The translations under genes were made by a program, and so were the position numbers. DNA of 64,000 bases from the NCBI RefSeq assembly GCF_041146345.1, contig NW_027191413.1, positions 1,612,001 through 1,676,000 of the forward strand. Direction: 5' to 3'. The stretch's first letter is position 1, and every line of letters begins with the position of its first letter. Under the pieces are notes generated by a model, which saw only the letters and a program-made list of their open reading frames with translations, did not search any database and was not told the origin of the DNA. Positions 38,014 through 39,720 of this stretch are shown in pieces. This stretch comes from Neodothiora populina (Eukaryota).

Positions 38014-39216
38014 TTAATCCCCTCCTAATCTGTGGCCGGGACCGCGACCACCCCATGAGTTGCCCGAAAAGCCACTTGTCCAACCTCCAGTACTTGCGCG
38101 TGCGGCAGGCTGAGCCTGACCTGCACTCGGCCTGGCCTGGAAGGCGGTGCCGTGGGTGGTGGTCCTCGGCGCGCCCGGAGCACTGTCGAACCATCTTTGC
38201 AAGACCTGAGGGGTCTTGATGGGGTTGGATCCTCGTCCGAAAGCAGGCCATATCCTCGTCAAGAAATCGTACAAGTGTGCGGCGACAAGGCCGGTGGCTT
38301 GGTTCATGGCGGACGTGGGCGAGTCCATGACCAGAGTCATCAGAAGCATGCAGTAGGGCAGGAACTTGACTCGGAAGGTCACAATGTAGAAGGTCATCTG
38401 CTGCTCTGGATTCTCTTGCGCATACAGGTATGCCAGAGCCAGGATCAAAGGTTGAAGGAACACAAACGAGCTCAGCCAAAGGCCTGCAAGGATCTTCGCG
38501 CAGGCAGTCAGTACACACGATATTGGAGGACAGACCGAGGTCCCAGACAAAGGAATAGGTCAAGTGTTGAGAAAGATATGTAGGGAGACAAAACCACCGC
38601 GACAACATGATGTTGAGCGGTTTTCTCAAATGCCGTTCCCACCTAGTCCCACACTCCGCACGAACCCTATTTTATTTTGCGAATGACGGATCCGGCACAG
38701 TGCAGGGGTAATCTCCCTCGATTCCAGGAACCGCTTCAGCTAGAGATTATGCTGGGCGGGCAGATATTTCGAGGTAATGTTGATGAATGAGGAAGATACA
38801 ACAGGAAAGACAAGACAAAGGGACGGAGTGATGTATAGCCTTACCGAAATGACACTACAGACGAAAACAATGAAGACCAAGAAGTCGGCAGGATTGGTGA
38901 AACGCGCTGAACCGACTTCCAAGGCCTTGCCATATGTGAATAGAAAATAAGGGTCGAGTAGCATGCCTAGCTTTGGACTGGTCAAGAGAAAACTTGTGGG
39001 CAGACGCCAGAGTTCGGGCAGCCACAGCTTGAAGATCTTGTACGGGATGAAGACGATATATCCCGCGTTCAAAATGCCCGTGTAGACAAGAACGGACGTT
39101 ACAGCAGCAGCGGCGGTTATGGTTCTGCGGGATGGAATGAGTATACTGTTGGACATGCTGATGAGAAGAGCAGAAGCTTACCTGGTAACCGGCGGTGCTG
39201 TCCAGAACATGTCCAT
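38014..39216 (-). CDS. DFM1: Derlin (Der1-like ERAD rhomboid pseudoprotease) with C-terminal SHP-like box, 3 exons (introns 39125-39181 and 38494-38844)
   Basis: MDMFWTAPPVTR|TITAAAA..., PELWRLPTSFLLT (WR motif), GLVAAHLYDFL (GxxxAH), and C-terminal WGGRGPGHRLGGD resembling a Cdc48-binding SHP box. Dfm1 versus Der1 orthology is inferred from that box only. Confidence 0.88.
38576..38778 (-). ncRNA. Intronic box H/ACA snoRNA candidate (snR37-like), in derlin intron 2
   Basis: Hairpin 1 closes with CCTCGA/TCGAGG and is followed by H box AGATTA (38709-38714). A middle hairpin follows. The 3' hairpin has pocket strands TTTGAGAA and GGTT around an ACCGC/GCGGT stem, with ACA (38579-38581) 14 nt downstream. 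Confidence 0.75.
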
Positions 39217-39720
39217 GGCAGACATGATGACTTGGGAATAAGTCGACAGCACCAAGTTGATTGAAGGAGTGGACGAAGCGTGAAGCTCTCTACAAGTGGC
39301 TCGCAGTAGGATTCAAAAACTGCGGTGTTGTGATTGTGAAGCGAAAGAAAGGTGTCGTGTAGCACGCGGAGGAATTTGAAGGAAGGACACATTGACGGAA
39401 ACAGCCGAATGTGGTAAAGCGGCCGCAGGTGCCGATGACGCTCGCCAAGAGCCGACAGAAAGCGTCCGAGTGCCACTTTTGGTGCTTCAGGGTGCCTCAA
39501 TGCCCCCGAAGTCGAAGGTGCGAGCCCCACTAAAGAGGAATCGGAGAGATAATGATGCAGTTGCTGCGGCGTGTATCACAGGAATTGCAGACGCTCTTAC
39601 TGGATGCAGAATACAGTCACTCTTTCTCTTGTTGGATTTTGACTCCTTCCCATCTCTGATAAAACTTACTGCCATTTCTCTGTAGATCTCCACTGTAGAT
39701 AAAAGAGATCATACTTCACA

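Follow-up and report, generated by a model that had tools for sequence, protein, structure and literature searches.

A Der1-like gene of three exons was found on the minus strand of the window, i.e. the whole 64-kb stretch of Neodothiora populina DNA that was analyzed (Table 1). Its exons together comprise 267 codons, which is also the length of protein P0001, and exon 3 is 100% identical to the latter. The Pfam DER1 profile is interrupted by intron 2 between positions 95 and 99; without its stop codon, exon 3 occupies 38017-38493. A length of 351 nt had been attributed to intron 2 in an earlier note on this DNA, and this value was confirmed (GT..AG borders, phase 0, 38844..38494). The intron contains a branch-like TACTGAC at 38511-38505. 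It is five to six times as long as intron 1 because it accommodates a snoRNA.

Table 1. Features of the Der1-like gene and of the predicted snoRNA in its second intron. Positions are those of the window.
Feature	Position	Strand	Remarks
Der1-like host gene, exon 1	39182..39225	(-)	ATG 39225-39223, read from sequence
Der1-like gene, intron 1	39125..39181	(-)	57 nt, GT..AG; junction keeps frame
Der1-like gene, exon 2	38845..39124	(-)	Pfam DER1, profile 6-95/191, E 1.1e-09
Der1-like gene, intron 2	38494..38844	(-)	351 nt, GTAAGG...AAG, phase 0
Predicted mature box H/ACA snoRNA, ~201 nt	38576..38776	(-)	covariance model and Nc ACA9 ends
Hairpin 1	38716..38774	(-)	lower stem CCUCG/CGAGG, upper stem CCGC-CAGC/GCUG-GCGG
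Hairpin 1 pocket, 5' strand UAUCUGC	38760..38766	(-)	CUGC conserved
Hairpin 1 pocket, 3' strand UUCCUGG	38724..38730	(-)	complementary to LSU UCAGGA-UA-GCAG
H box AGAUUA (ANANNA)	38709..38714	(-)	read in sequence
Middle (extra) hairpin, interrupted 18-bp stem	38648..38706	(-)	helix 4 covariation
Middle-hairpin loop motif UCAUUCGCA	38678..38686	(-)	invariant
Hairpin 3	38583..38640	(-)	lower stem GGGA..GGC/GUC-UCCC, upper stem ACCGC-CAACA/UGUUG-GCGGU
Hairpin 3 pocket, 5' strand UUUGAGAA	38623..38630	(-)	pairs with LSU UUCUCAAA; one unpaired A next
Hairpin 3 pocket, 3' strand GGUU	38592..38595	(-)	abuts upper stem; pairs with LSU AACC
ACA box	38579..38581	(-)	14 nt past last upper-stem pair
Der1-like gene, exon 3 and stop codon	38014..38493	(-)	Pfam DER1, profile 99-191/191, E 1.4e-14

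The minus strand of intron 2 displays, in this order, hairpin 1, an H box, an extra middle hairpin, hairpin 3 and ACA. The base of hairpin 1 reads CCUCG(A)...(U)CGAGG, and the strands of the middle stem are CCUGCACU...AGUGUGGG. Pocket-to-box distances are 16 nt in hairpin 1 (upper stem to H box) and 14 nt in hairpin 3, both within the canonical range of 14-16 nt. A three-hairpin H/ACA snoRNA in this derlin intron, with ACA exactly 14 nt below the upper stem, had been proposed in the earlier note; both the element and its canonical spacing were borne out by sequence and comparative data. Hairpin 1, the H box, the middle hairpin and both pocket strands of hairpin 3 (GGUU being the 3' one) were all located where the note had placed them, and its snoRNA boundaries lie within 2 nt of the homology-inferred ones. 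The latter were derived from the cDNA of Nc ACA9, a Neurospora crassa snoRNA described below, and lie 2 nt ahead of the first stem and 3 nt past ACA. A covariance model matched 38568-38783 with 212 bits (E 3.4e-54) as the sole match in the 64-kb window. As a single sequence the element folds weakly (z = -1.93), and 9 of 200 shuffled sequences folded equally well or better.

Orthologous loci were collected in a second metagenome scan with alignment A1 as query, a first scan with a single exon-3 protein having yielded 474 pattern matches and no confirmed relative. The ~200-nt element was detected by nhmmer in 73 of 80 orthologous loci (E 1e-36 to 1e-4), and the covariance model recovered it from 74 of 80 metagenomic Der1 loci, in each case within this intron, on the strand of the host gene and upstream of exon 3. 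Of the six loci without a covariance-model match, four do not extend upstream and two lack an intron. Aureobasidium pullulans-like loci (L186, L187, L249) are among the carriers of the element. The location in the derlin intron is kept in 74 of the 76 loci that could be judged, and the link to the host persists at protein identities to the Neodothiora derlin of only 43-61%. The two intron-less Der1 contigs may be transcripts.

Conservation and covariation in orthologous derlin introns had been named as a check in the earlier note, and both were found (74/80 loci; 40/48 pairs covarying). The 48 pairs belong to eight helices, and the 40 covarying ones change on both sides. Helices 1-3 (hairpin 1) are 78-98% paired with double changes in 10 of 13 pairs, helix 4 (middle hairpin) is 95.7% paired with double changes in 15 of 18, and helices 5-8 (hairpin 3) are 78-93% paired with double changes in 15 of 17. 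Of the cells in the model-fitted alignment, 90.8% are paired, compared to 40-48% with slid partners, and the values for pairing and double changes were matched by none of 500 shuffles; this alignment was fitted to the proposed structure and is hence biased toward it. RNAalifold, applied to a plain MAFFT alignment, reported compensatory changes in 30 of 44 pairs.

Among distinct sequences, ACA is invariant (54/54), and the H box conforms to ANANNA in 45 of 49, the remaining four ending in G. The guide of hairpin 1 (CUGC and UUCCU) is retained in 48 of 49 sequences. In hairpin 3, GGU is retained in 53 of 54 and UUGAGAA in 44 of 54; the ten deviants include Lecanoromycete-like and Eurotiomycete-like sequences. 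In both pockets the conserved guide nucleotides are those adjoining the upper stems. The most conserved stretch of the snoRNA is a loop and no pocket: U-C-A-U-U-C-G-C is present in the middle loop of all 52 sequences having letters there, and the 9-mer of this loop is retained in 51 of 54.

Conservation ceases at the predicted edges of the snoRNA, and past ACA+3 the intron is unalignable between loci. The 3' end after ACA was read directly only in the N. crassa cDNA (ACAUCU). A candidate 'target mimic' just 3' of the snoRNA, CTTGACCTATTC at 38564-38553, is present in only one of 52 distinct downstream flanks and was therefore ascribed to chance. When viral contigs were scanned for the rRNA motif, inspection by eye found rRNA-like flanks in only one (L087) of the 118 loci listed. 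The sequencing runs listed for the locus comprised two DNA entries of a single study, which may represent the source sample, and no RNA entry.

The closest known counterpart is Nc ACA9 (EU780988), a 201-nt RNA of N. crassa that was identified by cDNA cloning and Northern analysis and classified as 'orphan' and 'intron' (Liu 2009, BMC Genomics 10:515, PMC2780460). It was drawn with three hairpins, the H box AGAUUA and the terminus ACA-UCU-3', no target was given, and its host gene is unnamed in the main text (PMC2780460). Six motifs of the window (13, 11, 8, 14, 8 and 8 nt) each occur once among the 20 snoRNAs of the supplement to that study (PMC2780460), and all six fall in the Nc ACA9 entry in conserved order; homology was judged by this motif matching. 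Both RNAs are intronic, have three hairpins of which the first is followed by the H box, and share the hairpin 1 pocket, AGAUUACC, UCAUUCGCAAAAUA and CCCUACAU; the length of 201 nt and the end at ACA+3 of Nc ACA9 are predicted for the element as well. The middle-loop motif UCAUUCGCA is present in Nc ACA9 as well. Judged from these features, the element is very probably an intron-encoded box H/ACA snoRNA of ~201 nt and the ortholog of Nc ACA9. Since the Neurospora counterpart was cloned in 2009, the snoRNA is not a new class or kind of element, and the description 'hidden' used in the earlier note does not hold in the sense of previously unrecognized: cloning of the family and a drawing of its three hairpins had preceded it. 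Another intronic H/ACA snoRNA, described by Gao et al. 2021, has a vacuolar sorting protein gene as its host; derlin/DER1 is unmentioned in that study (PMC8216456).

A search of Rfam, proposed earlier with snR37 and other fungal H/ACA models in mind, assigned the intron to no family. At gathering scores, matches were absent from the whole 64-kb window. With Rfam 15 and E values up to 10, the region 38400-38950 gave only mir-268 in exon 2 (E 5.8), and ten orthologous loci gave only TtnuCD34 (E 4.8), outside the element. Similarity to the curated snR43 and SNORA9 models was likewise not seen in Rfam 15, presuming that it includes these families. The resemblance to yeast snR37 suggested in the earlier note rested on unverified blocks of shared sequence and did not hold up. 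The snR37 homolog of N. crassa is Nc ACA15 (26S-psi2902), whereas the element matches Nc ACA9 (PMC2780460). Rfam gave no match to the element in the window or in the ten orthologous loci, and snR37 guides psi2944, a region not represented among the top four matches in the full-length LSU L164 and different from the targets predicted here. Orthology with snR37 can thus practically be dismissed.

The constancy of the host intron, which is shared by 74 of 76 judgeable loci, would also be expected of a cis-acting structure that controls how the derlin transcript is spliced or expressed and gives rise to no stable trans-acting RNA. Such a role is highly improbable given that both boxes, H and ACA, are conserved and canonically spaced and that the N. 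crassa ortholog is a discrete 201-nt RNA ending at ACA+3 (cDNA, Northern; PMC2780460); two Der1 contigs, possibly transcripts, do without any intron. The element in intron 2 is thus considered a real, strongly conserved and so far unannotated snoRNA that is predicted to guide ribosome modification.

Potential targets were sought in real fungal-type LSU fragments (L120, L124, L139, L143) and in the full-length LSU L164; SSU and 5.8S sequences were those of L160, L164 and L165, which represent non-fungal or unknown eukaryotes. The hairpin 1 pocket can form 10-11 bp with LSU UCAGGA-UA-GCAG(A), leaving one guide U unpaired. This site, located 72 nt upstream of that of hairpin 3, was the top match in L124, L139 and L143 and tied in L120. 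The complementarity is at chance level, as 162 of 300 shuffled rRNA sets scored as high, and the assignment therefore rests on the invariance of the guide and on the known psi site. In yeast, psi966 is the snR43 site. Hairpin 1 (UCUGC / UCCUGG) is thus predicted, with fair likelihood, to guide the LSU uridine in UCAGGA-U-A-GCAG, the equivalent of yeast psi966. Yeast snR43 serves 25S psi966 and 5.8S psi73, of which the psi966-equivalent uridine is also predicted for hairpin 1; unlike with snR43, no pocket gave a 5.8S match of at least 9 bp. In Canzler 2018, S. pombe AJ632018 is placed in the snoStrip family 'HACA_9' and said to match snR43. To judge from its number, HACA_9 may be the family seeded by Nc ACA9, and the supplements of Canzler 2018 may already list membership and targets of an Nc_HACA_9 family.

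For hairpin 3, the complementarity to LSU AACC-UA-UUCUCAAA put forward in the earlier note was recovered in fungal-type LSU. With 12 Watson-Crick pairs, it ranks first in L124, L143, L164 and L120, and in L139 it is tied with a wobble-rich site. Its score was reached in just 3 of 300 shuffles of the rRNA set. One guide A at the top remains unpaired, and the 3' side of the pocket contributes only 3-4 bp. On the basis of this pairing, we slightly favor the prediction that in Dothideomycetes hairpin 3 (UUGAGAA / GGU(U)) guides the uridine in AACC-U-A-UUCUCAA. In Nc ACA9 the 5' strand of the hairpin 3 pocket is UUUGGAUGA instead of the UUUGAGAAA present here; therefore, the pairing with AACC-UA-UUCUCAAA is not maintained in N. 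crassa. The target uridine presumably corresponds to yeast U1039, 3 nt 5' of the snR33 site.

Three known guides act in the vicinity of this uridine. (i) Human 28S-psi1766 has been detected and is assigned to HBI-115/SNORA47. In chicken, the HBI-115 target precedes the ACA9/snR33-equivalent site by 2 nt (PMC2653536). The hairpin 3 target is apparently the vertebrate HBI-115/SNORA47 site, because only the first U of ACC-U-A-U-U-CUC fits the 2-nt spacing. SNORA47/HBI-115 differs in being a separate two-hairpin RNA with a different host gene, and similarity to the element was not detected. (ii) Yeast snR33 (25S psi1042) aims at the same short LSU motif as hairpin 3 in a register that is 3 nt off (psi1042 versus U1039 here). 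A function of hairpin 3 as snR33-type guide was considered and rejected: the best register puts the uridine 3 nt upstream of the psi1042 equivalent, and when the hairpin was re-registered by hand onto the downstream uridines, 3-4 guide A's remained unpaired and pairing on the 3' side was lost. In Canzler 2018, snR33 is given as not found in Pezizomycotina, a gap that the hairpin 3 target would fill. (iii) Vertebrate SNORA9/ACA9 (chicken GGgACA31; PMC2653536) is an intron-encoded dual guide whose 5' hairpin is directed to the snR43-equivalent and whose 3' hairpin is directed to the snR33-equivalent site (PMC2653536). Its 3' hairpin serves the UAUU cluster ~75-85 nt downstream of its 5'-hairpin site, and the target of the 3' pocket lies 2 nt downstream from the uridine assigned to hairpin 3. 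In contrast to the element, SNORA9/ACA9 is ~130 nt long and has two hairpins without a middle one; sequence or Rfam-level similarity between the two was absent from the window intron and ten orthologous loci.

The extra hairpin exposes the invariant UCAUUCGC as a single strand in its loop and, as judged from complementarity, probably provides a third site of base pairing with pre-rRNA. The loop is complementary to LSU GCGAAUGA, between the two pocket sites, and the motif UCAUUCGCA is complementary to LSU GCGAAUGAU and SSU UGCGAAUGGC. The LSU match is 9 bp long (990-998 of L124), and only 21 of 5000 shuffled segments of 71 nt contained one as good. When 6 kb of rRNA was shuffled, 118 of 300 shuffles had a loop match of at least 8 pairs at some position. 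The stretch of LSU flanked by the two pocket targets is a possible, though somewhat uncertain, partner of the loop. Pairing with 18S UGCGAAUGGC near 85-94 in place of LSU would imply that the RNA bridges or serves both subunit precursors. The 18S match is slightly better than the 9-bp LSU match, with 10 bp including one G-U (SSU of L164 and L160), and the invariant A following UCAUUCGC pairs only in the 18S duplex. However, 40 of 300 shuffles of the rRNA set also produced a loop score of at least 8.5 at some position, and the place of the LSU site between two pocket targets is rare by chance (21/5000), so that the 18S contact appears rather doubtful.

As is typical of its class, the snoRNA would be transcribed within the Der1-like pre-mRNA and released along with intron 2, after which trimming would stop at the borders shielded by the H/ACA proteins. 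The hairpin 1 pocket would then position the LSU uridine for isomerization by Cbf5. Conceivably, though with low probability, one snoRNA docks on ~75 nt of LSU domain II through three contacts and also acts as a folding clamp; the contacts would be the 5' pocket at the snR43 site, the loop at GCGAAUGA and the 3' pocket at the SNORA47 site. We take this ~75-nt stretch to lie around the A-site-finger helix. The human 28S-psi1766 site has been placed in H38a.

Alternatively, the RNA might form a genuine H/ACA snoRNP in which one or both pockets are non-modifying, and act as a chaperone of LSU domain II or be a functional orphan. Such a role would agree with the publication of Nc ACA9 as an orphan (PMC2780460), with the hairpin 1 complementarity being reached by 162 of 300 shuffles, with the one extra guide nucleotide unpaired in each pocket, with the hairpin 3 guide not being retained outside Dothideomycete-like sequences, and with a loop rather than a pocket being most conserved. 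It is nonetheless unlikely in view of the canonical pocket-to-box distances (16 and 14 nt), the match of both predicted uridines to pseudouridines reported in other eukaryotes, and the position of the conserved guide nucleotides next to the upper stems.

The guide function preferred here has consequences for the family and its host gene. The family has been an 'orphan' since 2009, and the 54 distinct sequences compiled in this work provide testable targets for both of its pockets; the comparative set also exposes an invariant loop without an assigned role. As the link to Der1 intron 2 is kept across divergent loci, the snoRNA is a useful marker for intron annotation, and the snoRNA-bearing Der1 intron explains spurious ORFs in protein databases. 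If the improbable docking through three contacts is true, filamentous ascomycetes would combine in one RNA the jobs that yeasts and vertebrates split over two or three snoRNAs, and snoRNA supply would be tied to the transcription of an ERAD gene.

The RNA lies within a Der1-like gene with three exons on the minus strand of the window. Exon 2 matched DER1 (Pfam) at profile positions 6-95 of 191 (E 1.1e-09) and exon 3 at positions 99-191 of 191 (E 1.4e-14). After splicing, the gene comprises 267 codons, which is the length of P0001, a database protein with 100% identity to exon 3 that is named by a source hypothetical protein/derlin of Neodothiora populina. An earlier note had described three hairpins, an H box and an ACA at 14-nt spacing, and the sense strand of intron 2 reads exactly so. 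Judged by sequence comparison, the element is a genuine box H/ACA snoRNA encoded in an intron and adds a member to a published family.

Features of the Der1-like gene introns and of the intronic RNA (window coordinates; conservation among distinct sequences)
Feature	Position	Strand	Remarks
Intron 1		minus	57 nt
Intron 2	38844..38494	minus	351 nt, GT..AG, phase 0
Hairpin 1, 5' of H box	intron 2 sense strand	minus	
Hairpin-1 pocket CUGC / UUCCU			kept in 48/49
H box AGAUUA	38714-38709	minus	ANANNA kept in 45/49; remaining 4 end in G
Long middle hairpin between H box and 3' hairpin	intron 2	minus	
Middle-hairpin loop UCAUUCGCA			kept in 51/54
3' hairpin (hairpin 3)	intron 2	minus	UUUGAGAA opposite GGUU across internal loop
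Hairpin-3 pocket UUGAGAA plus GGU			kept in 44/54
ACA	38581-38579	minus	last upper-stem pair 14 nt earlier; kept in 54/54

Folded alone, the element reached -68.1 kcal/mol (z = -1.93); of 200 shuffled sequences, 9 were at least as stable. It matched no Rfam family at gathering scores or at E up to 10. As this single-sequence fold is unimpressive and Rfam gave no match, the case for the element depends on comparison. Peptide strings such as LRK...WF.LPTY gave the first hint: they are common to several database 'proteins' retrieved in a Der1 protein search and are a translation of the hairpin-3 guide, the lower stem and the ACA. Seven such entries (P0002, P0010, P0013, P0018, P0020, P0036, P0055) are ORFs of 150-230 aa predicted across the orthologous derlin intron; their N-terminal parts (e.g. 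...LRKLL...WFWLPTY...) correspond to the translated 3' hairpin and ACA box, so that the entries are annotation artefacts due to a conserved non-coding RNA.

A metagenome scan with a Der1 alignment yielded 434 pattern matches, 137 of which were confirmed, and the best 80 of these 137 loci were taken. With the window element as query, nhmmer matched 73 of the 80 (E 1.1e-36 to 1.3e-4), without exception on the gene's strand and 5' of exon 3. A covariance model built from 49 distinct sequences and an H/ACA structure drawn up in this analysis matched 74 of the 80, and its one match in the 64-kb window lay at 38568-38783 on the minus strand (212 bits). Among the six loci missed, L183, L185, L240 and L244 have no upstream DNA, and L215 and L218 no intron. 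In the latter two (L215:1-961, L218:1-893) the Der1 reading frame continues uninterrupted without introns 1 and 2, so that they are either spliced transcripts that entered the data set or gene copies lacking introns. In the Aureobasidium-like contig L182, unrelated sequence (1148-1230) replaces hairpin 1, the 5' third of the element, while the remainder matches; the cause may be an assembly join or a true disruption. Intron sequence 3' of ACA+3 was not alignable across loci.

In the model-fitted alignment (54 distinct rows), which favours the structure used to fit it, standard pairs occupied 90.8% of cells, compared to 40-48% when the 3' partners were slid by 1-3 columns, and both sides had changed at 40 of 48 pairs. 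None of 500 column shuffles attained any of the five observed pairing measures. RNAalifold, run on a plain MAFFT alignment independent of the fitted structure, found compensatory changes at 30 of 44 pairs, the majority of them in the middle hairpin and in the upper stem of hairpin 3. The conserved single-stranded parts are those which an H/ACA guide requires, and conservation is highest in the middle-hairpin loop. The H boxes ending in G (AGAGUG, AGAUUG, AGAGCG; alignment columns 82-87 in L173, L201, L210 and L212) occur in otherwise intact RNAs.

Six window motifs (13, 11, 8, 14, 8 and 8 nt) each have a single occurrence among 20 H/ACA sequences of Liu et al. 2009 (PMC2780460), all in the entry of Neurospora crassa Nc ACA9 and in unchanged order. 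That 201-nt RNA from chromosome V, identified by cDNA cloning and Northern analysis, is tabulated there as 'Orphan' with location 'Intron'; its drawing in supplement 3 likewise shows three hairpins, with AGAUUA as H box and ACA-UCU-3' at the end. Homology would place the mature RNA here at about 38776 to 38576 (201 nt). A resemblance to snR37, proposed previously, does not hold: the table of the same paper lists the snR37 homolog as Nc ACA15.

Targets were predicted on eukaryotic rDNA fragments contaminating bacterial assemblies, not on the organism's own rRNA, with LSU, SSU and 5.8S identity assigned by Rfam. Short contigs with flanks typical of fungal-, plant- or animal-like LSU rDNA occur in at least 51 assemblies of bacteria or archaea (L119-L169), nine of them Rfam-confirmed; these contigs are assembly contamination. 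The one complete contaminating rDNA unit carries a group I intron (RF00028, 97.5 bits) in its SSU rRNA gene (L164:5472-5734). On this foreign rRNA, hairpin 3 formed 12 Watson-Crick pairs with LSU AACC-UA-UUCUCAAA, the site named in the earlier note. This was its top match in L124, L143, L164 and L120 and tied with a wobble-rich site in L139; using conserved guide letters only, it was equalled in 3 of 300 shuffled rRNA sets. The complementarity held, and the site is plausible as a predicted target. One extra guide nucleotide stays unpaired in each pocket, in hairpin 3 an A beside the upper stem.

Hairpin 1 fits LSU UCAGGA-UA-GCAG(A) with 10-11 bp, 72 nt upstream of the hairpin-3 site, as top or tied match in four fungal-type fragments. 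This match is at chance level, its score being attained in 162 of 300 shuffles. We take the site to be yeast ψ966, going by its distance from the second site and by yeast numbering. Such weight as this target has is due to its invariant guide and to ψ966 being the snR43 site in a published table (PMC5699541). In a chicken snoRNA table (PMC2653536), vertebrate ACA9 directs its 5' hairpin to the snR43-equivalent and its 3' hairpin to the snR33-equivalent site; HBI-115 guides a position 2 nt upstream of this second site. Since within ACC-U-A-U-U-CUC the first U alone fits this spacing, the predicted hairpin-3 uridine appears to be the HBI-115/SNORA47 site, given as human 28S-ψ1766 (PMC6466398), which was detected in human cells and assigned to H38a (PMC10454564). 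According to Canzler et al. 2018 (PMC5824354), snR33 was not found in Pezizomycotina, and S. pombe AJ632018, which 'matches snR43', belongs to snoStrip family HACA_9; our guess, from the numbering, is that Nc ACA9 seeded this family.

The middle-hairpin loop matches LSU GCGAAUGAU with eight Watson-Crick pairs plus one G-U or A-U, at 990-998 in L124 between the hairpin-1 (958) and hairpin-3 (1030) targets. An equally good match occurred somewhere in 118 of 300 shuffled 6-kb rRNA sets, and in 21 of 5000 shuffled 71-nt segments in a post hoc test. The loop could instead pair with the 18S site UGCGAAUGGC, which gives 10 bp. Directly 3' of the snoRNA, CTTGACCTATTC (38553-38564, minus strand) has the sense-strand sequence of the predicted LSU target region; of 52 distinct orthologous flanks a single one carries it, which makes chance the likeliest explanation.

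By blastx against named proteins from the Der1 protein search, some loci are Aureobasidium-like (87-100% identical) and many Pleosporales-like (60-77%); L241 shares 80% identity with a Lepraria protein, and L246 comes closest to Cladophialophora (62%). Together with the N. crassa ortholog, this spread suggests that filamentous ascomycetes have long possessed this RNA. In 10 of 54 sequences, L241, L232 and L246 among them, and also in N. crassa, the hairpin-3 guide departs from the conserved form; its target may therefore be lineage-specific, while the hairpin-1 pocket and middle-hairpin loop are general.
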